Assembly: GCA_043812495.1 (NCBI GenBank) | Contig: JBDRMG010000002.1 | Span: forward strand, 4,890-68,889 | Reading direction: 5' to 3' | From: Candidatus Omnitrophota bacterium | GTDB lineage: Bacteria; Omnitrophota; Gorgyraeia; Zapsychrales; JBDRMG01 | Length of the DNA stretch: 64,000 bases | Part shown: one piece after another, positions 15,590 to 62,688 of the stretch | Numbering within the stretch: the first letter of the stretch is position 1 | How the letters are laid out: each line of letters begins with the position of its first letter | Notes under the pieces: generated by a model | Databases searched by the model: none | Seen by the model: the letters and a program-made list of their open reading frames with translations, nothing else | Told to the model about the DNA's origin: nothing | Made by a program: the position numbers and the translations under genes

Positions 15590-15713
15590 TTTCAATGAGA
15601 CCATGACTTATGGAGTCCGCCATTGATTCAGTGGCGGATGACATAAGTCATGAGGTCGAATTGACCCAGCACTAATTTTGCATGTCAATAGTGATCTAAA
15701 ATTAATGCTGGGG
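15590..15713 (-). repeat. REP/BIME-like composite element copy A
   Basis: CATAAGTCATG..TCCGCCATTGATTCAGTGGCGGA..CATAAGTCATG nested palindrome, CGAATTGACCC core, CCCAGCA..TGCTGGGG hairpin. Confidence 0.8.
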
Positions 15714-15722
15714 TAAAACAAA

Positions 15723-15773
15723 TTAAAGGGCAGAAACGAATTGCATGAGTGCACAAATGTTTCTGCCCTTTAA
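15723..15773. repeat. Perfect 15-bp stem with 21-nt loop (terminator or REP-like)
   Basis: TTAAAGGGCAGAAAC..GTTTCTGCCCTTTAA. Confidence 0.6.
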
Positions 15774-15798
15774 ATTTAACAAAAATAATTAGGCCAGA

Positions 15799-16716
15799 AT
15801 GAATTCTCATTTATCCATTTCCACAGCCTGGAATTATCAAGAAAACGGCGATATGCGTAAGATGCTTTTGGAGATGAAAGCGCTCGGCGTGCGCTTTCTA
15901 GAATTAGGCTACCAATTAAAAAAGAATGACCTGGAGAACATCATAAGCCTTTTGGATGAAGTCAATCTCTCCGTGAGCAATCTTCATAATTTTTGCCCTG
16001 TTCCTGATGATGAATCAACGAACAGGCATTATTCGGGTTATTATTATCTGACATCTCTCAATGACAATGAACGCCAAAAAGCTGTCCAATGGACCAAAAA
16101 CTCCATTGAGACTGCTGTGCGCGTTAAAGCCAAAGTTCTTGTCATTCACGCAGGCACGATCGAAGCCGGACAGAATCAAAGCCGGCAACTTTTGGATATG
16201 GTTAAGGATGGGCATGGGCAATCCGAAAATTTTCAGCGTTTGCAAAAAGAGGTTCTCGAAATTCGAAAGAAAAACAAGGATCCTTACATACAAGCTTTAA
16301 CGCAAAGTCTTAGCGAAATCATGCCTTATGCTAAGTCAAAGGGTGTCGTGATTGGCCTGGAAACACGTTACTATCCCATGGAAGTTCCAGACTTTGAAGA
16401 AATCGGTTATTGCTTGGAACTCTTTCGCGATCAGGGATTACTTTACTGGCATGATGTGGGTCACGCGGAAACGAACGAACGTTTGGGGATAACGCCGCAT
16501 TTGGATTTCCTCAATCAATACAAAAGTTCCCTGGTGGGTGTGCATTTGCACGGGATACGAGGATTAAAGGATCACCTGGCGCCTTTTGACGGGGATTTTG
16601 ATTTGACAAAAATCATGCTTTTTTTTGACGATCCTGTCATCAAAGTTATTGAGGCGCATCCGAGCGTCTCATCCCAACAGCTGCAAGAAGCTATTAAGAG
16701 GTTGTCTCTTCGATGA
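15799..16716 (+). CDS. Sugar phosphate isomerase/epimerase (xylose isomerase-like TIM barrel)
   Basis: VLVIHAG, GLETRY, HDVGHAE metal-binding pattern. Confidence 0.6.
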   Translation: MNSHLSISTAWNYQENGDMRKMLLEMKALGVRFLELGYQLKKNDLENIISLLDEVNLSVSNLHNFCPVPDDESTNRHYSGYYYLTSLNDNERQKAVQWTKNSIETAVRVKAKVLVIHAGTIEAGQNQSRQLLDMVKDGHGQSENFQRLQKEVLEIRKKNKDPYIQALTQSLSEIMPYAKSKGVVIGLETRYYPMEVPDFEEIGYCLELFRDQGLLYWHDVGHAETNERLGITPHLDFLNQYKSSLVGVHLHGIRGLKDHLAPFDGDFDLTKIMLFFDDPVIKVIEAHPSVSSQQLQEAIKRLSLR

Positions 16717-16740
16717 GGCCATGATGTGCAACTGAAACAT

Positions 16741-16890
16741 CGTTTACACTTATGCCTGCCTGCCGTCAGGCAGGGAGTCCGCCATTGATTCAGTGGCGGA
16801 TGATATAAGTCATCTGGCCGAATTGACTCCGCTGCTTTCTTGCGAAAGCAAGAAGCGGGGGATTAAGCAAATGCAATTATAATATTTCAA
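16741..16890 (-). repeat. REP/BIME-like composite element copy B
   Basis: TCCGCCATTGATTCAGTGGCGGA, CGAATTGACTCC core, GCTGCTTTCTTGCGAAAGCAAGAAGCGGGGG hairpin, rc head TTGAAATATTATAATTGCATTTGCTTAATC. Confidence 0.85.
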
Positions 16891-16920
16891 CAATCATTTC
16901 CGTCTATAATTGATTAATCT

Positions 16921-17379: not shown

Positions 17380-17382
17380 ATT

Positions 17383-21594: not shown

Positions 21595-22080
21595 ATGGCC
21601 GGTTTCTTAGATCGCTTCAGAACGAATGTTGTTTTGAGTGTTTACAAAGAACAATCACCGTCGCCCCAAACGCAAGAGTTGAATGACAAAATTGCCCTTG
21701 GTGTTTTATTATGGGTTGTCGCGGAAGCGGATGAAAAGTTTCTCCCTGAGGAAAAAGACAAAATCAAGGACATCTTAAGTTCTCATGGGCATATGTCCAG
21801 CGATGAAATGTCGATTATTCTTGGTTCCATCGAGCAAGCGGCCAAGGAAAGAATTGATCTGTATCATTTTACGCGCGAAGTCAGTCAAGATCTTCGCTAT
21901 GAGGCCAAAATCATTATTCTTGAAAATCTTTTTAGAGTGGCCTGCGCTGATGGCGATCTTGACCACAATGAAAACGAGCTTATTCGCAAGATTGCCGGTC
22001 TTCTAAGAGTGGATCATAAAGATTTTATTGAAGCCAAGATAAAAATTAAGAAAGAGTCTAATTTACCGACTCTTGAATGA
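21595..22080 (+). CDS. TerB-family (tellurite-resistance TerB-like) protein
   Basis: Two TerB-like half repeats (ADEKFLPEEKDKI, ACADGDLDHNENELIRKIAGLL). Confidence 0.55.
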   Translation: MAGFLDRFRTNVVLSVYKEQSPSPQTQELNDKIALGVLLWVVAEADEKFLPEEKDKIKDILSSHGHMSSDEMSIILGSIEQAAKERIDLYHFTREVSQDLRYEAKIIILENLFRVACADGDLDHNENELIRKIAGLLRVDHKDFIEAKIKIKKESNLPTLE

Positions 22081-22187
22081 AATATTTTGATTGTATTTGC
22101 TGAAAACTCCCGCACCAATTATAAAATAATTGGTGCGGGAGTCAATTCGCACTTTCAACTTGCGTTCACTATAGTTCCGCAAGTTGT
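22079..22187 (+). repeat. REP/BIME-like composite element copy C
   Basis: Head GAAATATTTTGATTGTATTTGC, CCCGCACC..GGTGCGGG hairpin, AGTCAATTCG core, CAACTTGCG..CGCAAGTTG hairpin, terminal GCTCATTGGAAGGAGG = SD for tatA. Confidence 0.8.
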
Positions 22188-22400
22188 GTGCTCATTGGAA
22201 GGAGGATCATCATGAGGCTGGGTATTTGGGAACTTCTCATTATTTTTGGCGTGATTTTGATTTTATTCGGTGCCAAAAGGCTTCCTGAAATTGGCCAGGC
22301 GCTGGGCAAGGCGATCCGGGAATTTAAAAAAGCAGGCCAGGATCTCGGGGACGATTCCAAAGAAAAAACGAAAGAAGATCACGGTGAAGACAAAGCCTGA
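22188..22400 (+). CDS. tatA: Twin-arginine translocase TatA/E
   Basis: MRLGIWELLIIFGVILILFGAKRLPEIGQALGKAIREFKKA canonical TatA. Confidence 0.9.
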   Translation: MLIGRRIIMRLGIWELLIIFGVILILFGAKRLPEIGQALGKAIREFKKAGQDLGDDSKEKTKEDHGEDKA

Positions 22401-28903: not shown

Positions 28904-28976
28904 CTTTCATTTCATAACCCGAAGGCAAGAAAGAGGAAAAATGATGGTATTTTCATAGAAGTGATATTAAACTTAA

Positions 28977-29010
28977 ATGAGGAGTCGGGGTGTTTTCCCC
29001 GACTCCTCAT
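28977..29010. promoter_or_regulatory. Perfect 14-bp palindrome in divergent intergenic region
   Basis: ATGAGGAGTCGGGG-tgtttt-CCCCGACTCCTCAT. Confidence 0.5.
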
Positions 29011-29181
29011 CCCGAGGAACGAAGTGACGAGGGATCTCATGAGATCCTTCAGCCCTTTGGGCTTCAGGATGACCAGTCGGAGGAGCACGGCAGAAAACTC
29101 CCCGACTGGTCACTTAAATAGAGAAGGTAAAAAGTTAATTCTTCAAAGTTCGAAAGTCAAAGTAACGGAAAGAAGGAAGTC

Positions 29182-33266: not shown

Positions 33267-33407
33267 TCGTTTCCTTTGGATTTATTCTCCTTCGCCTTTC
33301 AAATGGAGCATAATGGTAAAGGCTTCGGAGAATCATTCAAAGTAGGATATTCTACGAAGTTCTCCTTCGCTAAAGTTCGACTTCGCTCTTCGAGCTTCGT
33401 CGAAATT

Positions 33408-33690
33408 TCGCCGAAGCATGAAATGCGAAGGCGGACTTCGGAGGAATCCTTCGGAGTCCGCCAATGAAACAATGGCGGACGAAGAAGGACATATGCTATC
33501 GTTTCCATTGGTTATGCGAAGTAGAATGACTCTTCGACACAAGCATTCTTCCACCGCGGCCTCTCGTTTCAATGAGGCCCGCACTTATGAAACGATAGTG
33601 AACATAAGTGCGAGGCCGAATTGACCCCCACACCAATTATGAAATAATTGGTGTGGGGGATAAAATAAATACAATTATAATATTTCCTTT
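33408..33690 (-). repeat. REP/BIME-like composite element copy D plus extra CGAAG/CTTCG palindromes
   Basis: TCCGCCAATGAAACAATGGCGGA, CATAAGTGCG, CGAATTGACCCCC core, CACACCAATT..AATTGGTGTGGGGG hairpin, rc head GGAAATATTATAATTGTATTTAT. Confidence 0.8.
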
Positions 33691-38135: not shown

Positions 38136-38154
38136 TTTATGTTGGAAAAATCTT

Positions 38155-38206
38155 GAACGCAGATCAACGCAGATCAACGCAGATCCAACGCAGATTTACG
38201 CAGATT
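38155..38206. repeat. Tandem repeat, five units of ~10 bp (AACGCAGATC)
   Basis: aacgcagatc aacgcagatc aacgcagatcc aacgcagattt acgcagattc. Confidence 0.9.
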
Positions 38207-38487
38207 CTTTTTTCGATTCAATTTGCGACCATTCGCGTTTGATCTGTCCCTCGCTTCTTGTGGTTCGACTCTCGCTCACCATCCTGAGCGAAAGTCGAAG
38301 GACTCGGGACTCCGAGCGAAAAGCGAGGAGGAAAATCCGCGTTTAAAGACATTTTTTCATTATTGGTCTTTTCCTTATTAATGGAACAGTCAATAATATT
38401 CTCTCTATACGAGAAAGAAGACCTAATATTGACTTCCACCGTTCCTTTAATAAAGAGAAAGTCAATAAGAACTACTATAAATTATCC

Positions 38488-39489: not shown

Positions 39490-40775
39490 ATGTTCTTGTC
39501 ATCGGTTCCGGCGGCCGTGAGCACACCTTAGTTTGGAAAATACAACAGAGCCCAAAGGTCCAAAAGATTTATTGCGCTCCCGGGAACGGCGGGATCGCTC
39601 AAATCGCCGAGTGCGTCGATATTAAAGCCGAGAATATTCCGCAACTTTTGGAGTTCGCTTCGCAACAATCGATTGATCTTGTTGTGGTTGGGCCGGAGGC
39701 ACCCTTGGTGGAGGGAATCGTCGATGCCTTTGAAGAGAAAGGATTTAAAATTTTTGGACCGTCCCAATATGCTTCCCAGTTGGAAGGCAGCAAGGTTTTC
39801 GCTAAGGAATTTATGAGGCGTTACCATGTTCCGACGTCTGATTTTGAAAGCTTTGAAAATTATGATGAAGCGGTGAATTTCGTTCAAGAAGCTGATTTTC
39901 CTCTGGTGATCAAGGCCGATGGTCTTGCGGCAGGAAAAGGTGTTATGATTTGCCAAAGCCGAAAAGAAGCTCAAGAGGCCCTTGATGACATCATGAAGAA
40001 GAAGATTTTTAAAGACGCGGGTAACAGAGTAATCATCGAAGAGTGTCTGATCGGTGAAGAAGCTTCTATGTTAGCCATTAGTGATGGGTCCGGATTTATC
40101 ATGCTTGATTCCTCGCAGGATCACAAACGGATTTTTGATGAAGATCAAGGACCAAACACCGGCGGTATGGGAGCGTATTCCCCGGCTCCGGTGATTTCCC
40201 AAAGATTAAGCCGGCAAATCGCGCAGACCGTCATTGCCCCCGTGATCGAGGGCATGAAGGAAGAAGGGTATCCTTTTAAAGGAGTTCTTTATGCCGGTTT
40301 GATGATTACGGACAAAGGGCCTTATGTCCTTGAATTCAATGTCCGTTTTGGTGATCCCGAGACACAGGCTGTTTTACCGCGATTAAAAAATGACCTCATC
40401 GATATTATGCTTGCAAGCTGTTACGGCTCATTAAAGAATACCAAACTGCAATGGGACAAAAGAGCGTGTGTGTGCGTTGTGATGAGTTCCCGCGGTTATC
40501 CGGGAAATTATGAAAAAGGAAAAGAAATTACCGGACTGGATGAGGTTTTAAAAGAACAAGACACCATGGTTTTTCATGCGGGAACAAAGCAGGACAAAGA
40601 CAAGATCATCACGTCCGGCGGGCGTGTTTTGGGTGTGACAAGTCTTGGTGAAGGCATACAGGGCGCGATCGCAAGCGTCTATCATTCCGTAGAGAAGATT
40701 CATTTCGACGGATGTTTTTTCCGCAGAGATATTGGCGCTAAAGCGCTCAAGCACACTAATAAAGCCACTGTTTGA
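39486..40775 (+). CDS. purD: Phosphoribosylamine-glycine ligase
   Basis: MNVLVIGSGGREHTLVWKI, ATP-grasp. Confidence 0.95.
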   Translation: MNVLVIGSGGREHTLVWKIQQSPKVQKIYCAPGNGGIAQIAECVDIKAENIPQLLEFASQQSIDLVVVGPEAPLVEGIVDAFEEKGFKIFGPSQYASQLEGSKVFAKEFMRRYHVPTSDFESFENYDEAVNFVQEADFPLVIKADGLAAGKGVMICQSRKEAQEALDDIMKKKIFKDAGNRVIIEECLIGEEASMLAISDGSGFIMLDSSQDHKRIFDEDQGPNTGGMGAYSPAPVISQRLSRQIAQTVIAPVIEGMKEEGYPFKGVLYAGLMITDKGPYVLEFNVRFGDPETQAVLPRLKNDLIDIMLASCYGSLKNTKLQWDKRACVCVVMSSRGYPGNYEKGKEITGLDEVLKEQDTMVFHAGTKQDKDKIITSGGRVLGVTSLGEGIQGAIASVYHSVEKIHFDGCFFRRDIGAKALKHTNKATV

Positions 40776-40815
40776 TTTGGCGTCAATTCTTCATCAAGAG
40801 AATGAGGAGAAGAAA

Positions 40816-41034
40816 ATGAAGAAAAGAACTTTCAGGTTTTTGTCTTTGTTACTATTTCTTTCTTTGCTTTTCGTTTCCCAAGCTTTATTCTTTGTTCAAC
40901 CTGGCATTGCCAGAAACAGACCTTACCCACCGCCGCCCCCCAGCGCACCCCATCTTACCAAGCCTACGGATCCAAATTTCGATGGCATCTATTTCGTTGA
41001 CTGGACAGATATAGGGGGTCAGGTCTCGACTTGA
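40816..41034 (+). CDS. Small secreted proline-rich hypothetical protein; C-terminus runs into REP
   Basis: ATG with GAGGAG SD, signal peptide MKKRTFRFLSLLLFLSLLFVSQA, PPPPP; last codons lie inside REP R1. Confidence 0.3.
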   Translation: MKKRTFRFLSLLLFLSLLFVSQALFFVQPGIARNRPYPPPPPSAPHLTKPTDPNFDGIYFVDWTDIGGQVST

Positions 41035-41042
41035 CGACATGT
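41015..41042 (+). repeat. RAYT-associated REP copy R1
   Basis: GGGGGTCAGGTCTCGACTTGACGACATG; imperfect palindrome GTCAGGTC/GACTTGAC. Confidence 0.8.
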
Positions 41043-41096: not shown

Positions 41097-41123
41097 GGGT
41101 CAGGTCTCGACTTGACGACATGT
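41097..41123 (+). repeat. RAYT-associated REP copy R2 (direct repeat of R1)
   Basis: GGGGTCAGGTCTCGACTTGACGACATG identical to R1. Confidence 0.85.
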
Positions 41124-41212: not shown

Positions 41213-42190
41213 ATGGCAAGACCTGTACGGTTATTATTCGAAGGAGCGTATTATCATGTCATCAATCGAGGGCAAAGTAAACGTGAAGTATTTTTGGATG
41301 AAAAAGATTATGAAGCCTTCCTTAAAGTAATAAGAGAAACCTGTCAGACATACAAGGTCAATGTTGTTGCCTATTGCTTAATGCGCAATCACTATCATCT
41401 CATCGTGTACACGCCAAATGCTAATTTACCTGGTTTTATGAGACAGTTAGGCGGTGTGTATACCCAATTCTTTAATCGAAAATACAAACAAGATGGGCCG
41501 TTATTTAAAGGTCGCTATAAGGCGATTGTTGTGCAAGAGGGCAGTTATCTGCTTCGACTTATACGATACATACATAAGAATCCGATACGGGCAAAGATCG
41601 TTGAGCGATTAGATAAATATCGATATTCAAGTCATGGCTTTTACACAAAAGAAAAAGAAAGTGAATGGCTCAAATTCAAAGATATATTAAAAGGGCAATG
41701 GAGAAAGCTGCAAAATTTTAAAAAGGCTTATCTTGATTTTATGAAAAAGGAGGATCAAGAGCTTGAGGAGTACTTGCAGGAAAAAAGCCGCAAGGCCACC
41801 GATGCCATCATCCTTGGAGACGATGAATTTACGGACACAATTAAAATGAACTATCTCCATGGAAAAAGAGTGTACGGGGATGTGCCTCAAGCCAAGCACA
41901 TAAAAGATGAGATGTGTTTTAAAAAAGTTAAGCGAGAGATTATAAAAGAATTTAAGATAGAAGAAGAGATGTTGTATATTTCTAAGCGGGGTAAGGAAAA
42001 TCTAGCGAGACTCTTGGCCATCGGATTGTTAAGGGAATGTAGCGGTATGACCTATAGAGGTATTGGATATGCTCTTCGAATTGAAAGCTATAAAAGTGTT
42101 GCCAAGTATGCGCAGAGGATGAAAGGTCGGTACTTAAAAGACCAGAGGATCAAGAATCTGTTTGATAGGTTGAAGGTGAGATGTATCTAA
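41213..42190 (+). CDS. REP-associated tyrosine transposase (RAYT, IS200/Y1-transposase-like HuH) with DnaA-domain-IV-like C-terminal HTH
   Basis: YHVINRGQ, MRNHYHLIV (HuH), catalytic Y region (YKAIVVQEGSYLL..YIHKNP); C-terminal LARLLAIGLLRECSGMTYRGIGYAL resembles DnaA C-terminal; flanked by inverted REPs. Confidence 0.8.
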   Translation: MARPVRLLFEGAYYHVINRGQSKREVFLDEKDYEAFLKVIRETCQTYKVNVVAYCLMRNHYHLIVYTPNANLPGFMRQLGGVYTQFFNRKYKQDGPLFKGRYKAIVVQEGSYLLRLIRYIHKNPIRAKIVERLDKYRYSSHGFYTKEKESEWLKFKDILKGQWRKLQNFKKAYLDFMKKEDQELEEYLQEKSRKATDAIILGDDEFTDTIKMNYLHGKRVYGDVPQAKHIKDEMCFKKVKREIIKEFKIEEEMLYISKRGKENLARLLAIGLLRECSGMTYRGIGYALRIESYKSVAKYAQRMKGRYLKDQRIKNLFDRLKVRCI

Positions 42191-42206
42191 GTCGAGACCT
42201 GACCCC
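42181..42206 (-). repeat. RAYT-associated REP copy R3 (inverted)
   Basis: GTCGAGACCTGACCCC is the reverse complement of GGGGTCAGGTCTCGAC; overlaps the RAYT stop codon. Confidence 0.8.
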
Positions 42207-42842: not shown

Positions 42843-43039
42843 GGGCCATTTTTAACTAGGGTGATGAATATTTCATAATTTAAAGTAAGATAAATAGATA
42901 AAGAAAATTATTGCATGGCCCTGATTCCTGAGATTTTATGAGATTTCAGTCATGATTTTTTCGATAAGATTATCGCTGTAATCTTCATGAATCACCGTAA
43001 TCAGGTTCTTTCGTACAACCTAAACAGAAAGAACCAAAT
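42843..43039 (+). repeat. ~190-bp repeat family X, copy 1 (GGGCCATT..ATGGCCCTGATT..GTAATCAGGTTCTTTC)
   Basis: Shares blocks with 46908-47076; terminal GGTTCTTTC..GAAAGAACC hairpin. Confidence 0.7.
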
Positions 43040-44562: not shown

Positions 44563-44565
44563 TAG

Positions 44566-44783
44566 AAATAGTATTTTTATATTTGTTTGACCCCCCGCCC
44601 CGCTTCTTGCTTCCGCCTGTCTGCCGACAGGCAGGCAAGAAAACAGCGGGGCGAGGTCAATTCGACCTTATAACTTATGTTCCGTCAATTCGATTTCATC
44701 GAATTGGCGAGACCTCGTCAGAAAATTTATAAAAAGACGGGCGCTTCACTCCATAAGTAATGGTCTCATTGATCGGAGGAATT
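44566..44783 (+). repeat. REP/BIME-like composite element copy E (beta subtype)
   Basis: CCGCTTCTTGC..GCAAGAAAACAGCGGGG, GAGGTCAATTCGACC core, TTCGATTTCATCGAA hairpin, terminal GGTCTCATTGATCGGAGG = SD for glyA. Confidence 0.8.
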
Positions 44784-46907: not shown

Positions 46908-47076
46908 CAAGGGGGCCATTCTTATTTGGATTAATAAATATTTTAAAATATTGGGAAAGACAAATAGATGATAAAAAGATTGAATGGCCCTGATTGCACA
47001 GATTGCATTAGATTACACAGATATTCACATCTGTGCAATCTGTTCCTAAATCGGTGTAATCAAGGTTCTTTCATTT
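46908..47076 (+). repeat. ~190-bp repeat family X, copy 2
   Basis: GGGGCCATT..AAATAGATGATAAA..ATGGCCCTGATT..GTAATCAAGGTTCTTTC; internal GATTGCACAG..CTGTGCAATC hairpin. Confidence 0.7.
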
Positions 47077-48541: not shown

Positions 48542-49374
48542 AGATCAAAGACACGGATATCAAGATTATTCAATCGGGTATGACGCAAGCGGCAACCGAA
48601 GCTATTGTCGTATCGGACAAAAGACAAAATGAGTTATCTCCTCCATCGCCTAGCCGGCTGATCACGGTAGCTGATATTATGAATAAGGATAGATTGTCTT
48701 TGGAAGAAAGAATCCGCCAGGCGACGGCTGCAGCGCTTCAAACAGCTCAAGAACAAAAAATGAAATCCATAGGTTTTCCATCCTTGGGTTGCCCTGATCC
48801 AAAAGTCCCGGCGCGGGCATCGGCCAAAATTATGACGCAGGAAATTATCAAATATCTGAGGACAAACGAAGCAACTCTCAAAGAAATCATTTTTTACGTT
48901 AACGACGAAGAATTATTTCGAGTTTTTGATAAAACCATCAAAGGCTATGTGGTTCATTTACTGGATCCATTTGCGCGACCCTATTGTACGGTTGATGCGA
49001 TTATTGAATACCAAAACGGAATCATTTTAATCGAGCGCTCTAACCCGCCTTTTGGGTGGGCTCTGCCCGGAGGTTTTGCGGATTATGGCGAAAGCTTGGA
49101 AGATGCGGTCAAGCGCGAGGCGAAGGAAGAGACCAATCTCGACCTTCTGGGCTTAAAGCAATTTCACACGTACTCGCAACCAGATCGGGATGAACGATTT
49201 CATACTGTTTCGACTGTTTTTGTCGCTCAAGGTCAAGGCGAGGCAAAATCCGGGGATGATGCACAGAATCTTAAAATTGTTGCATTCGATGACCTGAAAA
49301 AGATGGATTATGCGTTCGATCACAGAAAGATTATCGAGGATTATCTGGAAAGTAAAACCCCCCACCACTTTTAA
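48538..49374 (+). CDS. Macro-like domain plus NUDIX hydrolase fusion
   Basis: N-terminal KSIGFPSLGCPD macro-like; C-terminal Nudix box GGFADYGESLEDAVKREAKEETNL; last codons lie inside repeat F. Confidence 0.65.
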   Translation: MKIKDTDIKIIQSGMTQAATEAIVVSDKRQNELSPPSPSRLITVADIMNKDRLSLEERIRQATAAALQTAQEQKMKSIGFPSLGCPDPKVPARASAKIMTQEIIKYLRTNEATLKEIIFYVNDEELFRVFDKTIKGYVVHLLDPFARPYCTVDAIIEYQNGIILIERSNPPFGWALPGGFADYGESLEDAVKREAKEETNLDLLGLKQFHTYSQPDRDERFHTVSTVFVAQGQGEAKSGDDAQNLKIVAFDDLKKMDYAFDHRKIIEDYLESKTPHHF

Positions 49375-49591
49375 AAATGGCTGCAAGACCAAAAACGACG
49401 GGATTTTTGGAACAGATACGTTTTATTTCAAAAGAACGCTTTATTACTAAAAGTGGTGGGGGGTTCAATTCGGCTCGCAACTTACGTTTCCGTCAAAATC
49501 AAAGATTTTGACGAGATCTCGCCAATGGCATTAATGCAATTGGCGGACACTTGCGTTCCGTAAGTTGCGGCGTCATTGAAGGAGGGTTGCC
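49356..49591 (+). repeat. REP/BIME-like composite element copy F
   Basis: ACCCCCCACCACTTTT..AAAAGTGGTGGGGGG hairpin, TTCAATTCGG core, GCAACTTACG..CGTAAGTTGC hairpin, terminal GTCATTGAAGGAGG = SD of 49592 gene. Confidence 0.8.
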
Positions 49592-51081: not shown

Positions 51082-51221
51082 GGAAATATTACAGTTGTAT
51101 TTGCTTAATTCCCCGCTTCTTGCTTTCGCAAGAAAGCAGCGGGGTCAATTCGTCCTTATGACTTATGTCGTCCGCCACTGAATCAATGGCGGACTCCATA
51201 AGTCATGGCCTCATTGAGATG
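51082..51221 (+). repeat. REP/BIME-like composite element copy G
   Basis: Head GGAAATATTACAGTTGTATTTGCTTAAT, CCCCGCTTCTTGC..GCAAGAAAGCAGCGGGG, GTCAATTCG, CATATG..TCCGCCACTGAATCAATGGCGGA..CATAAGTCATGG, CCTCATTGAG. Confidence 0.9.
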
Positions 51222-52046
51222 ATAAAGATTATCGCGATTATTCTTTGTTCTGTTTTTGCGTTCGTCCTTTTTGTACGGACGCTTGAGCATACAAGTATTT
51301 TTTTTCCGACCCGCTCCATCACATTCACTCCGCAAGATATTAACTTAGCTTTTGAAGATATTATTTTCCCAAGCCATGGACTTTCTCTGAACGGTTGGTT
51401 GATCAAAGCCCCGAATGCCCGCTCAACGCTTCTATTTTTTCATGGTAATGCCGGAAATTTAAGTCATCGGCTGGAAAAAATTCAAATGTTCCATCGCATG
51501 AGTTTAAATGTTTTTATTATCGATTATCGGGGCTATGGAAAAAGCCAGGGACGTCCCAGCGAACAAGGCCTGTATCAAGATGCTCTGAGCGCTTATGATT
51601 ATCTCGCGAGTCGAAGCGATATCGACCAAAATAATATTATTGTTTATGGCGCCTCCTTAGGAAGCGTAGTAGCGATTGATTGTGCGACCAAAAGAAAAAT
51701 GGCCTGTTTAATTGTTGATTCCGCTTTCTCAAGCGCGGCCGATATAAGCCGGAGAATCTATCCGTTTATTCCCGTGTGGCTATTGAGAACGAAAATGGAC
51801 TCTGTATCAAAAATTCAATCTATTTTTGTTCCCAAGCTGTTCATCCACAGCCGCGATGATGAAATTGTGCCGATTGAATTAGGCCGCAGGTTATTTGATC
51901 AAGCTCCTTTGCCAAAGAAGTTTATCGAAATCCGCGGAGGGCATAACACCGGCTACGGTGAATCGGAAAAAGAATTTACGCAAGGGATACAATCATTTCT
52001 TGAGGAACTCAATCTTCTCAATGAGGCCAATATTTACGGAGTGTAA
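51219..52046 (+). CDS. Alpha/beta hydrolase (serine hydrolase with N-terminal TM anchor)
   Basis: LFFHGNAGN, GASLGS nucleophile elbow, D and H downstream; ORF-track start at 51165 lies in the repeat and is rejected. Confidence 0.7.
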   Translation: MIKIIAIILCSVFAFVLFVRTLEHTSIFFPTRSITFTPQDINLAFEDIIFPSHGLSLNGWLIKAPNARSTLLFFHGNAGNLSHRLEKIQMFHRMSLNVFIIDYRGYGKSQGRPSEQGLYQDALSAYDYLASRSDIDQNNIIVYGASLGSVVAIDCATKRKMACLIVDSAFSSAADISRRIYPFIPVWLLRTKMDSVSKIQSIFVPKLFIHSRDDEIVPIELGRRLFDQAPLPKKFIEIRGGHNTGYGESEKEFTQGIQSFLEELNLLNEANIYGV

Positions 52047-52215
52047 CGCCCGCCCATTTTCCTAATATTAGGCGAGGTCTCGCCCATTCGATAAAATCGA
52101 ATAGGCGGAACGTAAATAGACGGCCGAATTGACCCCCGCACCTTTTATCTATTCAAATATATTTAAATCGTGCGATGTTAAGATATTTGAACGAGAAAAA
52201 GGTGCGGGGGTATAA
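52047..52215 (-). repeat. REP/BIME-like composite element copy J (beta subtype)
   Basis: CCGAATTGACCCCC core, CCCCGCACC..GGTGCGGGGG, TTCGATAAAATCGAA hairpin and GGCGAGACCTCGCC shared with copy E. Confidence 0.75.
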
Positions 52216-52250
52216 AGAAAATAAAATCTGATTATTTCTTTTTTGAGGGC

Positions 52251-58479: not shown

Positions 58480-58524
58480 CTATGGCAGTTCTTTACAGCC
58501 GTTTTCTGATACCATATAATGAAG

Positions 58525-58662
58525 AAATAGTAAATTCTTATTTGCTGTACCCAGCCCGCCACTGAATCAATGGCGGGCTGGGTCAATTCGCGCATATGAT
58601 TTACATTCTCCCGTCTTAAAGCCGGGATCATGTAAATCATGCGCTCATTGAAGAGAAGAAAG
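58525..58662 (+). repeat. REP/BIME-like composite element copy H1 (gamma subtype)
   Basis: CCAGCCCGCCACTGAATCAATGGCGGGCTGGG, GTCAATTCG, GCGCATATGATTTACA..TGTAAATCATGCGC, CTCATTGAAGAGAAGAAAGAGGAGGG. Confidence 0.85.
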
Positions 58663-58849: not shown

Positions 58850-58893
58850 TGAAAAGCGGCCCGCCAATGAATCATTGGCGGGCCGCTTTTTCC
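58850..58893 (+). terminator. Terminator-like hairpin built from REP core
   Basis: GCGGCCCGCCAATGAATCATTGGCGGGCCGC plus TTTTTCC. Confidence 0.6.
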
Positions 58894-58894
58894 T

Positions 58895-59030
58895 TACTGA
58901 AGGAAATAGTAAAATTTTAATTTGACGTACCCCGAGTCCGCCACAAACTTTGGCGGACTCGGGGTCAATTCGCGCATATGATTTATACTCCCTATCAGTC
59001 GCATAAATCATGCGCTCATTGAAAAGAATG
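58895..59030 (+). repeat. REP/BIME-like composite element copy H2 (gamma subtype)
   Basis: CCCCGAGTCCGCCACAAACTTTGGCGGACTCGGGG, GTCAATTCG, GCGCATATGATTTATA..TATAAATCATGCGC, CTCATTGAAAAG. Confidence 0.85.
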
Positions 59031-59041: not shown

Positions 59042-60211
59042 TCAGGAGATCTCAGAAAGGAGATTATATCGTGGTTCCAATTCCCCAAGAAATTTGAGAT
59101 TGAATGTTCTAAAGAAAACGGGAATCGGCAGAAACAGGAAATTGACCGATAGAAAAAGAAGGAATAAAAAAATTCCTCCCAAAATAGCAAAAATAACTCC
59201 GAGGATGACTTGCAGAGTCGAAGGGAGTAAATTAAGCGCAAAGTAAATGGCAAATCCCAGAAGAACCACGAGGAAGCCGACAATAAGCAAAATTATTAGA
59301 CCGATGATCATAGCTAAAATGCTTCCGGCGATAGCAAAACCCATGCATATCAGAAGATAAAGCAAAATTTCTTTCAAATTTATCTTAAGAAGAACAAATG
59401 CCTCTGGCCATGCGCGCATAATGCTAATATTATTTTTAAACATAATAGGGAGGACAAAATTTTGAACAAACCAATGAATGAGCATGCTCACAATAAAAAG
59501 GAAGGCAAAGATAAAGAGAAAGGGGGCCGCTATGCCAAGAATCCTAAAGAAACCAATCTCTGAGGCGTGCTCAAAAACTCCGGCCTGACTCAAAGATTGA
59601 AAACATCCAAAACCAAGACCGGCAAAAAGGACAAGAAACACCAAACCAAAGACAAGATTCCATAGAAAATAAGACGTCCCAAGTCCCCTCAGTTGAATAA
59701 ATGGCTGTTTAATATTGACCTTATTTTTAATAATATCGTCCAAGAAGACAAAAAAGAAGATGCTTCCGATCCAGGCAAGCAGCATCACTAGTATAGAAAC
59801 AAAAAGAATCACTATCCCCCCAATGGCAAGAACAATAGGATTGGATTTGATCGACTCAATCATCTGTTTAAATTCGTCTAGACCTGAAGAGGCTGCCAGA
59901 TGAACAAATTTCTTCTCTTCCATGACATCTGAAGCTAAGTGAAAATCTGGCGTTGAAAGCTGCCAAGAGGTTTCCGTTTCCGAGGGTGCCGAATCTCTTT
60001 TCTGAAAGAAATTTCCGCCGCCGTTTCCGCCGCCAATAGACAGCTGTCCTGAAAGCCAGGCGATCAAAGCCAGAGTGACCCATTTCCTGAGATTAAAGGG
60101 TTGGAAAAGAATGGTTTTTGTTCTTTCAAAAGAGAACTTAATAATGGGGCTAAAATCGATTTTCATATTTTCATGATAACACTTGAGAAAAACAATGCAA
60201 ACAATTTTCAT
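59042..60211 (-). CDS. Hypothetical polytopic membrane protein with Gly-rich N-terminal region
   Basis: About 7-8 TM helices, GGGNGGGN segment; no family recognised; start could be internal ATG (60166). Confidence 0.5.
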   Translation of the reverse strand: MKIVCIVFLKCYHENMKIDFSPIIKFSFERTKTILFQPFNLRKWVTLALIAWLSGQLSIGGGNGGGNFFQKRDSAPSETETSWQLSTPDFHLASDVMEEKKFVHLAASSGLDEFKQMIESIKSNPIVLAIGGIVILFVSILVMLLAWIGSIFFFVFLDDIIKNKVNIKQPFIQLRGLGTSYFLWNLVFGLVFLVLFAGLGFGCFQSLSQAGVFEHASEIGFFRILGIAAPFLFIFAFLFIVSMLIHWFVQNFVLPIMFKNNISIMRAWPEAFVLLKINLKEILLYLLICMGFAIAGSILAMIIGLIILLIVGFLVVLLGFAIYFALNLLPSTLQVILGVIFAILGGIFLFLLFLSVNFLFLPIPVFFRTFNLKFLGELEPRYNLLSEIS

Positions 60212-60279
60212 ATTTTTAACCCATTGTTGCCGGATGGAGAATCTGATATAATGACGTTGCCATTGTGCGCGATAGGAAG

Positions 60280-60660
60280 ATGAAAAATATCAAAATACAA
60301 TTAGGCACATTAGAGGTTATCGCGCGCCTGAACGGTTCGGCCACGGCCGGCAGGATTTGGGATGCCCTGCCTTTAGAGTCTTTGACGAGTCTCTGGGGTG
60401 ATGAGATTTATTTTCCGATTCCTGTTAAATGCAAAATTGAGGAAGGGTTCGCCAAAGACGTTGTGGATATCGGTGATATTGCCTATTGGCCCGAGGGAAA
60501 ATGTTTTTGTATCTTCTTTGGGCAGACACCGGTGAGCAAACCCGGCGAAATCCGTCCGGCAAGCGCCGTAAACCTCATCGGAAAAATAGAAGGCAACTGG
60601 GAGCCGCTCAAGAAAGTGAAAGAAAACGAGAAGGTTATTATCAAAGAATTAAAGGAATAG
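60280..60660 (+). CDS. Cyclophilin-like fold family protein (DUF369/Cyclophil_like-type)
   Basis: ARLNGSATAGRIWDALPLES...GDIAYWPEGKCFCIFFGQTP; AGGAAG SD, TGATATAAT extended -10 at 60243. Confidence 0.5.
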   Translation: MKNIKIQLGTLEVIARLNGSATAGRIWDALPLESLTSLWGDEIYFPIPVKCKIEEGFAKDVVDIGDIAYWPEGKCFCIFFGQTPVSKPGEIRPASAVNLIGKIEGNWEPLKKVKENEKVIIKELKE

Positions 60661-60676
60661 AATCCAGAAAGTTTCC

Positions 60677-61684
60677 ATGAATCATCTGATGCTCATCATT
60701 ATTGCTGCCGTTGCCATCTTGCTTGCCGTGATTATTATGCTGATCATTCATTTAAGCAGAATGAATCACCAGCTTTCTACACAATTGGCGAATACAATGG
60801 ATAAGCAATTGGAAACGATGCGCGGCGAGCTCAATGCCCGGCTCAATGAGACCAGCCGTGCCATTGCCGAGACCCATAAAACGGTTGGTGAACGGTTGGA
60901 TAATGCGACAAAAATTTTCGGGACCGTTGCCACAAGTCTCGGGCAGCTTCAGGAGGCCAACAAAAGGCTTTTGGAAGTCGGTCAGGATATTGCGAGCCTG
61001 CAGGAACTTTTACGCGCCCCCAAATTTCGCGGAGAAATCGGCGAAACCATGCTGGAAAATATTTTGGCGCAGGTCTTACCTAAGGATCATTTCGAATTAC
61101 AGTATCATTTTAAGACCGGCGATGCGGTGGATGCGGTCATCAAGCTGGCCGACCATCTGGTGTGCATTGATTCAAAATTTTCCTATGAGAATTTCAAAAA
61201 GATGATTGAAGCGGACCATGAGGACGAAAAGGCTTCTTATCAGAAAAAGTTTATTAAGGACGTCAAAAATCGCATTGACGAAATTTCCGCGAAATATATT
61301 CTCCCCGATGAAAGAACATTTGACTTTGCCCTGATGTACATTACGGCCGAAAATGTTTATTACGAGACGATCATCAAAGGCGATTTTCTTAGCTATTCAT
61401 TGTCCAAGAAAGTGGTCCCCGTTTCTCCGAATACCTTTTATGCTTACCTGCAAGTGATTTGTTTGGGTTTGCGGGGAATGAAAATTGAAAGCAATGTGCA
61501 GAAAATTATCGCCAGTTTGAATCAGCTTCAAGGGGACTTAAAGAAATTTGACGAGTCCTTTAAAGTCGTCGGCAGCCATATTCGCAATGCCGCCACAAAA
61601 TACACCGAAGCAGAGAAGAAGCTTGAAAGATTTTCGGATAAATTAATCAGCGTTGAACAGAGTAAGCAAATCGAAGCTCTCTAA
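60677..61684 (+). CDS. rmuC: DNA recombination protein RmuC
   Basis: N-terminal TM, coiled coil, LRAPKFRGEIGETMLENIL and DAVIKLADHLVCIDSKF RmuC signature. Confidence 0.85.
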   Translation: MNHLMLIIIAAVAILLAVIIMLIIHLSRMNHQLSTQLANTMDKQLETMRGELNARLNETSRAIAETHKTVGERLDNATKIFGTVATSLGQLQEANKRLLEVGQDIASLQELLRAPKFRGEIGETMLENILAQVLPKDHFELQYHFKTGDAVDAVIKLADHLVCIDSKFSYENFKKMIEADHEDEKASYQKKFIKDVKNRIDEISAKYILPDERTFDFALMYITAENVYYETIIKGDFLSYSLSKKVVPVSPNTFYAYLQVICLGLRGMKIESNVQKIIASLNQLQGDLKKFDESFKVVGSHIRNAATKYTEAEKKLERFSDKLISVEQSKQIEAL

Positions 61685-61709
61685 TCTTGCCAAGGCACCC
61701 AAATATTTC

Positions 61710-62453
61710 ATGCCCCCAAAAGAAAAACTCAATCGTCAAAAAATCTTGGGAAGACTTCAGAATTTCTTTGGTAAAGACGTGTTTGTTTTTGTAAGCGAGC
61801 GGCCGGTGGACTTTTCTCTGGCCAAAAGTGCTCCCTTGTTTTCTTCGCAACAGAAGAACTTATTCAAGAGAAGGGGAAGCCTTAAGTTTTCGCGCGTCTT
61901 GAATATTCGGCAAATTCACGGATGCCGTATTCTTTGCGTGACAGGAGAAAATGATTGGCCCCAAAGAAAAATAAGGAGAGCCGACGGCCTGATGACATGC
62001 GCGTCCCATATTCCCTTGGCGGTTCGGATAGCCGATTGCTTGAGCATTTTCATGTTTGATCCAAAGACGAAAACAATTGCCCTCGTTCATGCGGGTTGGC
62101 GTGGAAGCCGAAAGCAGATAGCCAAGAAAGCCGTTCTTCTTATGAAAAGAAAATTTGGCGCCAGAGCGGAAAATTTAAAAATTACTTTTGGCCCGTGCAT
62201 ACGGTCTTGCTGCTATCAGGTGAGCGTTCCATTTAAGAATTATTTTCCTCGCGAAGTGAAAAAAAGAAACAATCAATACTATTTGGATTTACCTTTGGTC
62301 AACAAGAATCAATTAATCCAAGCAGGCGTAGAAAAAAGAAACATTTTTGATAGCCGGCTTTGCACCTTTTGCGATCAACATTTTTTCTCCTTTCGCCGGC
62401 AAGGAAAGAAAGCCGGACGCATGATTTCGCTGATTATGAGAAAATCTTCGTGA
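61710..62453 (+). CDS. yfiH: YfiH/PgeF (DUF152, Cu-oxidase_4) purine-nucleoside phosphorylase/laccase-domain protein
   Basis: IALVHAGWRG, FGPCIRSCCYQV, C-terminal CTFC motif. Confidence 0.85.
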   Translation: MPPKEKLNRQKILGRLQNFFGKDVFVFVSERPVDFSLAKSAPLFSSQQKNLFKRRGSLKFSRVLNIRQIHGCRILCVTGENDWPQRKIRRADGLMTCASHIPLAVRIADCLSIFMFDPKTKTIALVHAGWRGSRKQIAKKAVLLMKRKFGARAENLKITFGPCIRSCCYQVSVPFKNYFPREVKKRNNQYYLDLPLVNKNQLIQAGVEKRNIFDSRLCTFCDQHFFSFRRQGKKAGRMISLIMRKSS

Positions 62454-62530
62454 CAGGCTTAAAAAGAGAACGCGTGTAGCAATTCCCCTTTTTCTATGGC
62501 ATAATCAAGGTAGAAGGTCATTCTTTATAG

Positions 62531-62688
62531 TTGAAATATTATAATTGTATTTGCTTAATCCCCCGCCTCACCAAAATTGTTAAACAATTTTGGTGGGCGA
62601 GGTCAATTCGTCCATATGACTTATGTCGTCCGCCACTGAATCAATGGTGGACTCCATAAGTCATGGCCTCATTGAAAGGACGTCAAAG
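62531..62688 (+). repeat. REP/BIME-like composite element copy I
   Basis: Head TTGAAATATTATAATTGTATTTGCTTAATC, CCCGCCTCACCAAAATTG..CAATTTTGGTGGGCGAGG, GTCAATTCG, CATATGACTTATG..TCCGCCACTGAATCAATGGTGGA..CATAAGTCATGG, CCTCATTGAAAGGA = SD of cutA. Confidence 0.9.

Follow-up and report, generated by a model that had tools for sequence, protein, structure and literature searches.

Origin of the hairpin repeats between genes

In this stretch of DNA from an uncultured Omnitrophota bacterium (64,000 nucleotides, hereafter the window), the same hairpins recur between genes. What are these repeats, and what brought them there? They form a previously undescribed, new family of small mobile hairpin repeats. 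The element comprises an AT-rich head, a variable hairpin (P1, CCCC..GGGG), the core GGGGTCAATTCG, a second hairpin (P2) and the end CTCATTGA. With at most one mismatch allowed, the core has 12 matches in the window versus 0.41 expected. The match at 54368, inside a gene, is due to chance and is not an element. The remaining 11 are real modular copies, located within 15.6-62.7 kb, and no copy is found in 1-15 kb. A covariance model (CM) trained on relatives' copies recovers 10 of these 11 at E <= 3e-4. Copy 2, with its core at 16819, does not score above chance (11.7 bits, E 0.97), owing to large insertions in its P2, and was accepted by eye.

P2 is the constant module, a hairpin GGGG | TCAAT-TC-G ... 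C-TC-ATTGA that occurs in subtypes. P1 is GC-clamped and falls into several recurring classes, with conserved asymmetric bulges and loops. The head, which contains TATAAT-like hexamers, is present in 9 of the 11 copies and was never found apart from the element. The hairpin modules combine as mosaics, in either orientation: this genome adds the AT-rich head, and other genomes add an inverted second P2 copy (P0), yielding P0-P1-P2 mosaics. At full length, a P0-P1-P2 copy forms a long inverted repeat whose ends are TCAA(A)TGAG...CTCATTGA. The same mini-hairpins recur within P1, within P2 and alone.

A sequence-only reading of the window had proposed at least 11 copies and this modular layout, and both were recovered here. 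It had also closed the repeat with AGGAG. The end CTCATTGA does belong to the element, but AGGAG is, at the two junctions tested, the Shine-Dalgarno sequence (SD) of the downstream gene. The unusually high density that it had noted holds for this genome: elements cover 2.3% of the window and explain 9 of the 21 listed gaps longer than 90 nt between genes (median gap of the genome, 27.5 nt), the tenth and eleventh copies of that tally falling in gaps that the gene list used does not resolve.

Position of the copies relative to genes

The orientation is reversed in four of the 11 copies in the window; these are located in 3' UTRs or extend into the ends of coding sequences. Copy 1 (15592-15712, minus strand; P1 and alpha P2 without head; CM 48.7 bits, E 2.8e-9, and fold) is in the 3' UTR of the plus-strand DUF4870 gene, between the stop codon and an intrinsic terminator seen as an inverted repeat at 15720-15776. 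In copy 2 (16710-16888, minus strand; head, class B P1 and alpha P2 with two nested extra hairpins; identified from the core match, sequence reading and head), the terminal TCGATGAGG contains the stop codon TGA of the plus-strand gene 15799-16716. Copy 4 (33569-33686, minus strand; head, class C P1 and short P2; CM 68.6 bits and junction comparison) lies in the purC-purL gap. Copy 8 (52018-52238, minus strand; head, class E P1 and beta P2, reversed; CM match) separates the hydrolase and GH5 cellulase genes, and the hydrolase ORF terminates inside it. More generally, reversed copies adjoin or overlap stop codons.

On the plus strand, copy 3 (22079-22198; head, P1 and short P2; CM 58.8 bits) stands directly 5' of the tatA SD and ATG, with AAGGAGGATCATCATG after the element and TatC next. 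Copy 5 (44565-44772; head, P1 with a nested CCTGTCTGCCGACAGGCAGG hairpin and beta P2; CM match), between rpiB and glyA, ends 2 nt 5' of the native glyA SD. Copy 6 (49357-49579; long class D P1 and beta-like P2; CM match) lies between a NUDIX gene and a response-regulator gene, and the NUDIX ORF now terminates within the 5' arm of P1. Copy 7 (51083-51217; head, class B P1 and alpha P2; CM 65.2 bits) occupies exactly the space from the ychF TAA to the G-ATG of the hydrolase gene. Copy 9 (58524-58651; head, P1 made of the CCGCCACTGAATCAATGGCGG mini-hairpin and gamma P2; CM 65.1 bits) is in the 5' UTR of a 51-aa ORF, 3' of a promoter-like TTTACA-17-TATAAT (promoter scan; 58492-58520). Copy 10 (58903-59022; head, P1 and gamma P2; CM 65.6 bits), read on the minus strand, is located between the stop of the DUF7544 gene (59042-60211, minus strand; Pfam) and a bidirectional terminator at 58852-58890 (inverted repeat), which is itself a true terminator formed by one of the family's mini-hairpins. 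Copy 11 (62533-62675; head, P1 and alpha P2; CM 55.5 bits) is 5' of cutA (Pfam CutA1).

Of the family's 78 canonical ends, 41 are followed within 2 nt by an SD and then a start codon, and 6 touch the start codon directly. Many highly expressed genes have a copy 5' of them, including those for ribosomal proteins, RpoA, RpoB, GroES, Rho and EF-P. Canonical promoters are observed just 5' of elements at three further loci (L062, L011 and L048), as in the window at 58492-58520. No link was found between P1 type and downstream gene. Some copies sit inside other structures: P1-P2 in the T-loop of partial tRNA-Glu copies, and P0-P1 at the 5' end of group I introns in tRNA genes.

Empty junctions in syntenic relatives and spread of the family

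Three syntenic relatives (L093-L095; SHMT 76-79% identical) contain no element in 63.75 kb. Five orthologous junctions measure 0-60 nt in them, with a single exception (180 nt, in one relative), as compared to 137-469 nt in the window. The purC-purL gap is 469 nt in the window versus 57-180 nt in the relatives; the empty rpiB-glyA sites span 27-47 nt, with a conserved GGAGGAAnnATG; the NUDIX/response-regulator junction is 11 nt in L093; the ychF/hydrolase junction in L094 reads TAA-G-ATG; and in the relatives the hydrolase and GH5 genes overlap or are 4-29 nt apart. Therefore, the window copies are lineage-specific insertions, which fill the space from a stop codon to the next gene's native SD or start codon. 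Native SDs are conserved, two ORFs of the window now extend into the element, and the relatives' genes keep their own SD at the five element-free junctions. Comparison of filled and empty sites revealed no target-site duplication or defined target motif, and no transposition event was seen. At rpiB-glyA, the original spacer (18-38 nt in relatives) is missing from the window, which simple insertion does not explain.

An exact-pattern scan returned 79 loci, 67 of which carry 101 CM matches. These 67 correspond to about 50 assemblies labelled Omnitrophota, a few being labelled Ratteibacteria or Planctomycetes. The remaining 12, which come from other phyla, fail to fit the CM, and 131 kb of other metagenome loci gave no CM match. 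Hence, the family is genome- and phylum-wide. Local segmental duplication, which the sequence-only reading had set against its own proposal, is ruled out because about 50 species-level Omnitrophota genomes carry the family.

A RAYT-like transposase gene with flanking hairpins

The window also carries an intact RAYT-like HUH/Y1 transposase gene (41213-42190, plus strand, 325 aa; PF01797, E 1.3e-16), which had been overlooked although it lies within the region spanned by the repeats. Enzymes of this type mobilise such repeats in other bacteria. The best NCBIfam match is the REP-associated tyrosine transposase model NF047646, at 69.1 bits (below its curated cut-off of 80) versus 24.9 bits for the IS200 model. 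Aligned with E. coli RayT, the protein has an intact HUH motif and catalytic Tyr, and its C-terminal region resembles the DnaA C-terminal domain. A tblastn comparison with E. coli RayT detected no similarity, and solved structures gave no sequence match. The gene is itself inserted between purD and purE, which overlap in L093.

Two direct copies of a REP-type hairpin, GGGGTCAGGTCTCGACTTGAC, precede the gene (41016-41035 and 41097-41116, plus strand), and an inverted copy (42186-42205, minus strand) overlaps its stop codon. Inverted hairpins (GGGGTCAAGTCTCGACTTGAC) with a 5' GGGGTCAA bracket the gene in six Omnitrophota genomes: that of the window, L097/L098, L099, L100, L101 and L102. The arrangement of the window recurs in L097, L099 and L100 and, with motif variants, in L101 and L102; in L097 the hairpins also form dispersed REPIN doublets. 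In all six loci, tnpB is absent beside the gene. Two loci, the window and L099, contain both the RAYT-like gene and P1-P2 elements.

The flanking hairpins and P2 share the 5' GGGGTCAA and a closing TTGA, and the base of P2 agrees with GGGG-TCAAGTCTCGACTTGA-C, the simple REP hairpin on either side of Omnitrophota RAYT-like genes. The two are not identical: GGGGTCA(A), TC and the closing TTGA are the only common parts. Because they have so little in common, the link between enzyme and substrate is one of analogy, and the gene product is a candidate mobiliser of the repeats.

DNA palindrome or RNA structure

The hairpins are conserved as structures. Paired cells amount to 88.9-89.7%, versus 32-47% in slid controls, and double-change cells number 226 and 655, versus 81 and 195 in shuffles, a strong covariation. 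In forward P2 copies, G·U and A·C are equally frequent (24 each), and the seed alignment has 15 G·U versus 18 A·C. Since G·U is no commoner than A·C, a DNA-level palindrome fits better than a selected RNA, although this wobble test is too weak to exclude RNA-level function. The earlier suggestion of elements selected for RNA or DNA structure is tipped towards DNA. The precision with which about half of the copies abut an SD (0-2 nt), together with the asymmetric bulges and loops of P1, could reflect an RNA-level function.

Nature of the elements

The repeats probably belong to the REP/REPIN/BIME kind of palindromic DNA, as small elements that are non-autonomous and confined to the candidate phylum Omnitrophota. 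The spread of the family, the insertions, the mosaics in either orientation and a RAYT-like Y1 gene with GGGGTCAA...TTGA hairpins support the sequence-only proposal of REP/BIME/ERIC/Correia-type mobile palindromes. A vertically inherited cis-acting RNA leader, i.e. a regulatory or translation-enhancing 5' UTR structure or a site for an RNA-binding protein at many Omnitrophota genes, would account for the SD-flush ends, the highly expressed neighbours, the upstream promoters, the covariation and the conserved P1 loops. However, it is unlikely given the five junctions that, in the three relatives, lack the element yet keep their SD, the four reversed copies, the absence of G·U excess, the indifference of P1 type to the downstream gene and the fact that nothing in Rfam resembles the family. 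Transcription terminators or attenuators of coincidental sequence likeness would also be stable GC-clamped hairpins between genes, and the mini-hairpin at 58852-58890 does terminate. Yet no T-tract follows P1 or P2, many copies lie within ribosomal-protein and other operons immediately 5' of an SD, and real terminators, where present, are a separate hairpin 3' of the element, making this reading highly improbable.

Two other kinds of mobile DNA have to be weighed. The long inverted repeats of full-length P0-P1-P2 copies, found between genes in both orientations, recall a classical MITE, an internally deleted DDE transposon (Correia- or RUP-like) with P0/P2 as terminal inverted repeats for a cut-and-paste transposase. 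Against this stand the lack of target-site duplication at any filled-versus-empty site, the one-armed (P1-P2) state of most window copies, which nevertheless look intact, and the absence of a DDE transposase from the window. Moreover, each arm is a hairpin with an insertion-tolerant apex, as fits recognition of a folded single strand, and the window encodes a Y1 enzyme whose gene has matching flanks; a MITE origin thus appears slightly less likely even than an RNA leader. Derivatives of IS200/IS605 (palindrome-associated transposable elements), as opposed to REPs tended by a domesticated single-copy RAYT, would share the enzyme superfamily (PF01797), a dependence on hairpins without inverted ends or duplications, and a transposase gene that is itself an insertion. 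This origin is doubtful, about as much so as the leader: the RAYT model outscores the IS200 model (69 versus 25 bits), the hairpins are inverted around the gene in RAYT-like fashion, tnpB is missing at all six loci, and no conserved 4-5 nt target sequence is found 5' of the elements.

On the REP-like reading, nested hairpins have enlarged the P2 'loop'. The enzyme encoded at 41213-42190 may recognise the hairpin foot, GGGG with TCAA/TTGA, and move the elements as folded single-stranded DNA, preferably into single-stranded hairpin loops and tolerated junctions. After insertion, transcripts of the neighbouring genes would include them as closed stem-loops of the 5' or 3' UTR. In that position they would be at least tolerated, because closed hairpins would leave the SD free and hold stop and start close. 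They may even stabilise or punctuate mRNA, like REP, ERIC or Correia elements.

Comparison with known systems

Neisseria Correia elements are inverted repeats of about 100-150 nt that make up about 2% of the genome; they commonly lie just 5' of genes, are co-transcribed, can give rise to promoters and serve as substrates of RNase III (PMC2649163, PMC5039591). The window elements take up a comparable share of the window, and their head carries TATAAT-like hexamers, but the 26-bp terminal inverted repeats, TA target duplication and IHF site of Correia elements were not seen here. Enterobacterial ERIC/IRU is an imperfect palindrome found in intergenic regions that are transcribed; it is conserved across genera and varies in size through internal insertions, and pneumococcal BOX is modular (boxA-boxB(n)-boxC) and predicted to be highly structured (PMC2229807, PMC3049150). 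The Omnitrophota family combines an ERIC-type palindrome and its insertion variants with BOX-type modularity; it differs in having no sequence similarity to either and a candidate enzyme in the window. To our knowledge, no transposase is associated with ERIC or BOX.

E. coli BIMEs, described by Gilson, Bachellier and colleagues, are reportedly mosaics of palindromic units in alternating orientation, with a limited set of linker motifs. P0 and P2 would correspond to the units, and the P1 classes and head to the linkers. There is no sequence relationship, however, and the Omnitrophota linkers are themselves long hairpins.

A close parallel is with the REP/REPIN and RAYT systems of E. coli and Pseudomonas (PMC3116915, PMC3337134). 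In contrast to these, the Omnitrophota foot motif is GGGGTCAA instead of GTAG, dispersed units measure 95-225 nt and contain nested hairpins, versus 20-40 nt for REP, and doublets have their motif sides inward across P1. The enzyme, of about 325 aa, has a DnaA-C-like tail and a score under the curated RAYT threshold, the hairpins beside its gene are not the same as the dispersed copies, and copies are SD-flush, not only in 3' UTRs. In both systems, nonetheless, the hairpins are short and extragenic and carry a conserved 5' motif at their foot (PMC3116915, PMC3337134). They also share singlets and inverted doublets, high copy number with long persistence in the lineage, insertion without terminal duplications and an HUH/Y1 transposase gene bracketed by inverted hairpin copies.

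Anatomy of the element and its copies in the window

With at most one mismatch allowed, the core GGGGTCAATTCG has 12 matches in the window, against 0.41 expected. Reading the flanks at these matches left 11 real copies with a single common layout, all within 15.6-62.7 kb, which confirms the composite palindromic family of at least 11 copies claimed by the sequence-only reading. In 9 of the 11 copies, the element opens with an AT-rich head, GAAATA(T/G)TAnAAT..TATTTG, which was not found apart from the element. The first hairpin, P1, has a CCCC/GGGG foot and a stem that varies between copies. It is directly abutted by a second hairpin, P2, of the form TCAAT-TC-G NNN (inner stem ACTTAYG...CRTAAGT, variable apex) NNN C-TC-ATTGA, whose foot, 5' GGGG-TCAAT, is invariant. 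A covariance model seeded from relatives in other genomes recovers 10 of the copies at E <= 3e-4. The eleventh has a P2 with two extra hairpins and scores at chance level (11.7 bits, E 0.97); it was accepted by eye.

Overall, the elements make up 2.3% of the window bases and, with a median intergenic gap of 27.5 nt, explain 9 of the 21 listed gaps longer than 90 nt. No tRNA genes were found in the window. Rfam gave no match at gathering thresholds and, in E-value mode, only chance hairpin matches to miRNA models. A tRNA-like or riboswitch-like RNA was rejected on these grounds.

Occurrence in other genomes

Scanning one genome per species for the exact pattern gave 79 loci. Sixty-seven of them, from about 50 assemblies labelled Candidatus Omnitrophota (with a few Ratteibacteria or Planctomycetes bins), hold 101 hits to the model, with a G+C content of 35-60%, which argues against a local duplication confined to the window. 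The remaining 12 loci, which come from other phyla, are not matched by the model, and it had no hit in 131 kb of unrelated metagenome loci. A metagenome scan with YchF for close relatives that would give empty sites at base level returned only 40-51% relatives, carrying no elements, and viral contigs gave two chance matches only. Exact look-ups of three window proteins gave no match, in the case of SHMT owing to a misplaced start codon. None of the fetched loci resembles the window closely in its DNA, so the shared element is either ancient or widespread.

In many genomes, the element takes a longer form, P0-P1-P2, in which an inverted copy of P2 (P0) precedes P1; some of these copies have two P1 hairpins between the arms. 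Such doublets appear as overlapping plus- and minus-strand hits to the model in L066, L009, L010, L012, L034, L071, L029 and L075, all loci fetched from other genomes.

Pairing and covariation

In the seed alignment, 88.9% of the cells are paired, versus 32-44% when the partners are slid, and double-change cells number 226 versus 81 in shuffles. The 101 hits behave in the same way (89.7% paired versus 38-47% slid; 655 double-change cells versus 195). The basal stem covaries in the P0 copies too (TAAAT/ATTTA, TAAGT/ACTTA, CACAT/ATGTG). A structure selected as RNA is expected to tolerate G·U far better than A·C. In P2, G·U is no more frequent than A·C (15 vs 18 in the seed alignment; 24 vs 24 in the forward copies), which points to Watson-Crick palindromy maintained at the DNA level. 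These alignment-based counts were used in place of a strand-asymmetry test on MFE folds, which was dropped because it is confounded by refolding. An excess of T·G in the P1 foot was discarded as an ascertainment artefact of the search pattern. An alternative fold, with TCAATTCG and an upstream GAATTTGA extending P1, was also considered; covariation favours separate P0 and P2 hairpins, and the complementarity of the two motifs is trivial since P0 is the reverse complement of P2.

P1 classes recur in distant genomes, for example class A (..AAAATTTTCTTCGATAATTTT..) and class B (3' bulge AAAGC). The loops of each class are asymmetric and conserved, and its orientation relative to P2 is fixed; hence P1-P2 is one unit and not two independent palindromes.

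Filled and empty gene junctions

Three Omnitrophota genomes (L093-L095), whose SHMT, the glyA product, is 76-79% identical, are syntenic with the window over 32.5-57 kb, in the order purC-purL...rpiB-glyA-nrdR...NUDIX-RR-ychF-hydrolase-cellulase, RR being a response-regulator gene. Run without filters, the model detects no element in 63.75 kb of these relatives, whereas the matching stretch of the window has five. Between ychF and the hydrolase gene, L094 reads TAA-G-ATG and the window TAA-(136-nt head+P1+P2)-G-ATG. Here, translationally coupled codons are split by 136 nt of hairpins without an SD, and the downstream ORF is intact. The rpiB-glyA junction measures 27-47 nt in the relatives, with a conserved GGAGGAAnnATG, and 221 nt in the window, where the element ends 2 nt before the same SD. 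From NUDIX to RR, the spacing is 11 nt in L093 and 217 nt in the window, and the NUDIX ORF now ends inside P1. The hydrolase and cellulase genes overlap or lie 4-29 nt apart in the relatives; in the window they are separated by 204 nt holding a reversed copy, inside which the hydrolase ORF now ends. Finally, purC and purL are 57-180 nt apart in the relatives and 469 nt apart in the window. As the relatives' junctions are empty, the window copies are lineage-specific insertions, dispensable for the neighbouring genes. The idea that the SD is part of the element was rejected for glyA and RR, where the relatives keep the same SD without the element.

Position relative to genes

Among 78 elements with a canonical 3' end, 41 are followed 0-2 nt after ...CTCATTGA by an SD, then a start codon and ORF; in 5 others the SD is 3-12 nt away, and 6 directly abut the start codon. 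The downstream genes are very diverse (L11, L7/L12, L22, S5, S7, RpoA, RpoB, GroES, Rho, EF-P, glutamine synthetase, ATP synthase c, tatA, glyA and others), and no link between P1 type and downstream gene was found in this sample, which holds few orthologues. On the other side, reversed copies lie against or overlap the preceding gene's stop codon, as does the P0 end of the full-length form. Six window copies face a downstream gene (22103, 44590, 49353, 51107, 58546 and 62562) and four follow a stop codon (15592, 16716, 52018 and, on the minus strand, 58926), two of the latter lying between the stop codon and a separate intrinsic terminator. The copy at 33569 is within the 469-nt structured gap. 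A role of the head as a sigma-70 promoter was not adopted: TATAAT-like hexamers occur in both directions without a conserved -35, and for the copy at 58546 a better promoter lies upstream of the head.

The SD-flush 3' ends could result from purifying selection, the spacer between stop codon and SD being the only free space. Another possibility is target preference. A third, by analogy, is a host benefit, in which the element would keep the SD unpaired, bring stop and start close in space, or protect mRNA ends; benefits of this type have been described for REP, ERIC and Correia elements (PMC2229807, PMC2649163).

The elements also mislead gene callers, as several ORFs have their first or last codons within them. 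For glyA, the longest-ORF call is 8 codons too long, beginning at an in-frame ATG at 44760 in the 3' strand of P2; the true start, used by the deposited protein (415 aa), is at 44784, after the SD. ORF calls for the NUDIX gene, the hydrolase gene and the gene at 15799-16716 are likewise artefactually extended into elements.

Possible insertion into hairpin loops

A mini-hairpin, CCGCCACTGAATCAATGGCGG, occupies seven window sites: the P2 apex in four cases, P1 in one, a terminator stem, and one site where it stands alone. Together with a second mini-hairpin, CCTGCCTGCCGGCAGGCAGG, its coordinates are 15617, 16779, 33458, 51172, 58556, 58861 and 62630, and also 16755 and 44616; the terminator with a mini-hairpin as its stem is bidirectional (58852-58890). 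CCTGCCTGCCGGCAGGCAGG recurs within P0, P1 or P2, not only in the window but also in the elements of several other genomes (L005, L025, L066, L073). In addition, two fetched loci, L019 and L038, each hold a partial tRNA-Glu copy whose T-loop (TTC^AAAT) is interrupted by a P1-P2 unit. These split tRNA 3'-end copies (CCGGTTC^AAATCCGGTTGGGG..) are found downstream of tRNA-Glu genes, at 7432-7900 in L019 and 6105-6380 in L038. The 137-nt P1-P2 unit of L019 forms a tandem array across an assembly gap, and the run of Ns in this array illustrates how the elements break assemblies. In two further loci (L069 400-880 and L074 4400-4800), the anticodon loop of a tRNA gene holds a group I intron whose initial ~130 nt are a P0-P1 unit, and the tRNA 3' half follows the intron. 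The L069 intron is called by Rfam (RF00028, 74 bits); that of L074 was inferred from sequence. Insertions into hairpin loops would be expected from a mechanism acting on folded single strands.

A candidate RAYT-like transposase

Annotation of the remaining long gaps identified an ORF at 41213-42190 (plus strand, 325 aa) as a Y1 transposase (PF01797), inside the coordinates that the sequence-only reading gave for the family. Its neighbours are purD and purE, two genes that overlap in L093; the ORF is thus an insertion relative to the syntenic relatives. The best NCBIfam model, 'REP-associated tyrosine transposase' (RAYT), scores 69.1 bits, below its cut-off of 80; the IS200 model scores 24.9 bits. 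In an alignment with E. coli RayT, the HUH histidines (H60, H62) fall on EHMHC and the catalytic tyrosine (Y119, IRYIHKNP) on YIYINP; the C-terminus bears a weak resemblance to DnaA domain IV. The protein has 1072 homologues at E <= 1e-10; the closest are 53-64% identical, about 325-330 aa long, combine PF01797 with PF08299 and are largely labelled Omnitrophota. A tblastn search with E. coli RayT gave no match in 818 kb of fetched DNA. RAYTs differ from IS200/IS605 TnpA in being single-copy, vertically inherited genes without tnpB. The RAYT-like gene is present once in the 64 kb, and no tnpB adjoins it in the six loci where it is flanked by hairpins; on the other hand, as said, the gene is an insertion relative to the syntenic relatives.

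A hallmark of RAYT systems is a gene flanked by inverted copies of the genome's own dispersed REP. Two GGGGTCAGGTCTCGACTTGAC copies precede the transposase gene, and an inverted copy overlaps its stop codon. Inverted hairpins flank the RAYT-like gene in six genomes, the window and five other Omnitrophota, with the variants GGGGTCAAGTCTCGACTTGAC-TACA in L097/L098, GGGTCAAGTCTCTACTTGAC in L099 and L100, GGGGTCAAGTCTCAACTTGC in L101 and GGGGTCAAATCTTTTCTTGAC in L102, there in six tandem copies. The flanking hairpin has a 7-bp stem preceded by GGGG. It has in common with P2 a 5' GGGGTCAA, then TC and a closing TTGA; the window's flanking hairpins share with the dispersed P2 only GGGGTCA..TC..TTGA. 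On sequence grounds, P2 looks like a flanking REP whose loop has been replaced by a long nested hairpin. L099 carries a RAYT-like gene and a diverged P1-P2 element together. In L097, the flanking hairpin is also found at four further sites within 16 kb, as dispersed inverted doublets that correspond to REPINs as defined previously (PMC3116915).

Just upstream of the transposase gene is a 100-aa ORF (40732-41034) whose N-terminus is signal-peptide-like; it matches no family, and its end falls within the first flanking REP hairpin. The relatives' purD-purE junction lacks this ORF. In L102, the order is a small HTH_Tnp_1 ORF, the RAYT-like gene and, directly downstream of the latter, the six tandem hairpins (GGGGTCAAATCTTTTCTTGACTGCA, 1348-1590).

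Other repeats and structured gaps

A second, unrelated intergenic repeat, GGGCCAT...(AT-rich)...ATGGCCCTGATT..hairpin..AATCARGTTCTTTC, has two copies with 76% mean column identity (42843-43039 and 46908-47074). They occupy the purE>sua5 and BFN>polyA polymerase junctions, where the syntenic relatives show an overlap or about 20 nt. The 352-nt purQ-purM gap (38136-38487) holds 4.9 tandem copies of AACGCAGATC (38156-38205), then a strong hairpin, CCCTCGCTTCTTG...GCGAGGAGG; purQ and purM overlap in L093. Between divergent genes, a palindrome cluster at 28960-29120 (AAATGAGGAGTCGGGG..CCCCGACTCCTCAT, then CCCGAGGAACGAAGTGACGAGGGATC..GATCC...) folds at -100.6 kcal/mol over 278 nt, and akin CCGAGGGATC motifs adjoin elements in the fetched loci L005, L007 and L052. 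The 302 nt between purC and element copy 4 (33267-33568) are very strongly structured (-114.4 kcal/mol) and include the mini-hairpin CCGCCAATGAAACAATGGCGG. An 83-aa minus-strand ORF called in it matches no family and is unlikely to be a gene; an sRNA or decayed repeats could account for this stretch.

Interpretation and comparison with known systems

The elements are best read as a new REP/BIME-like family. The mobile palindrome of this type proposed from the window sequence gains support from insertions absent in syntenic relatives and from a family spread over about 50 assemblies. The RAYT-like enzyme would probably move the elements in trans, and the copies would be co-transcribed as closed stem-loops at cistron boundaries. 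A much broader reading, to which we give a low probability, joins an ancient, phylum-wide REP-RAYT-type partnership, an enzyme with an acquired DnaA-type DNA-binding tail, a REP grown into a three-hairpin cassette that enters single-stranded hairpin loops, and host co-option as intercistronic punctuation. If it were true, the cassette would insert into other element copies, into T-loops of tRNAs and into the P1 loop of a group I intron, and the cassette, flush with the ribosome-binding site or on the start codon, would define or protect mRNA ends. Such a punctuation role would explain why the elements end so precisely at the SD and why the asymmetric P1 classes are conserved.

In Omnitrophota, uncultured and ultra-small bacteria whose genomes are tightly packed, the elements illustrate how intra-operon insertions of 100-225 nt are tolerated by a streamlined genome: they are closed hairpins that fit precisely between one gene's stop codon and the ribosome-binding site of the next. 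To our knowledge, REP/RAYT-type systems have been studied almost only in Proteobacteria and nothing was known of Omnitrophota repeats; a literature search found no mention of the motif or of any repeats in this phylum. The window yields the repeat family together with a covariance model that detects it, sites that are clearly filled here and empty in relatives, and, on the same contig, an enzyme that may mobilise the family, which makes a direct biochemical test possible.

Two other kinds of hairpin-bearing DNA were weighed against the REP/BIME-like family. Integron attC sites carry R''-L''...L'-R' boxes (GTTRRRY), run in uniform orientation in a cassette array and have an integrase nearby. 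The elements show no such boxes, occur in both orientations and have no integrase present; the genes that flank them are housekeeping genes, syntenic with the relatives. A MITE of the Correia type is defined by terminal inverted repeats together with a target-site duplication. Most window copies are one-armed only, and neither a target-site duplication nor a conserved target sequence was found at the five filled-versus-empty junctions, so that the element does not match this definition.

The comparison with REP/REPIN-RAYT systems is closer. In these systems the RAYT binds and cleaves the REP as single-stranded DNA; here, the lack of a wobble bias points to pairing at the DNA level. In REPINs, inverted doublets are the replicating unit and singlets are decay products; the P0-P1-P2 copies are such doublets, in an orientation that differs from that of the L097 REPINs. 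As in REP/REPIN-RAYT systems, the same genome encodes an HUH/Y1 enzyme (PF01797, with the HUH and Tyr residues, at a RAYT score below cut-off), and dispersed extragenic hairpins share a conserved 5' foot motif, here the P2 foot, present with covarying stems in 101 hits at 67 loci.
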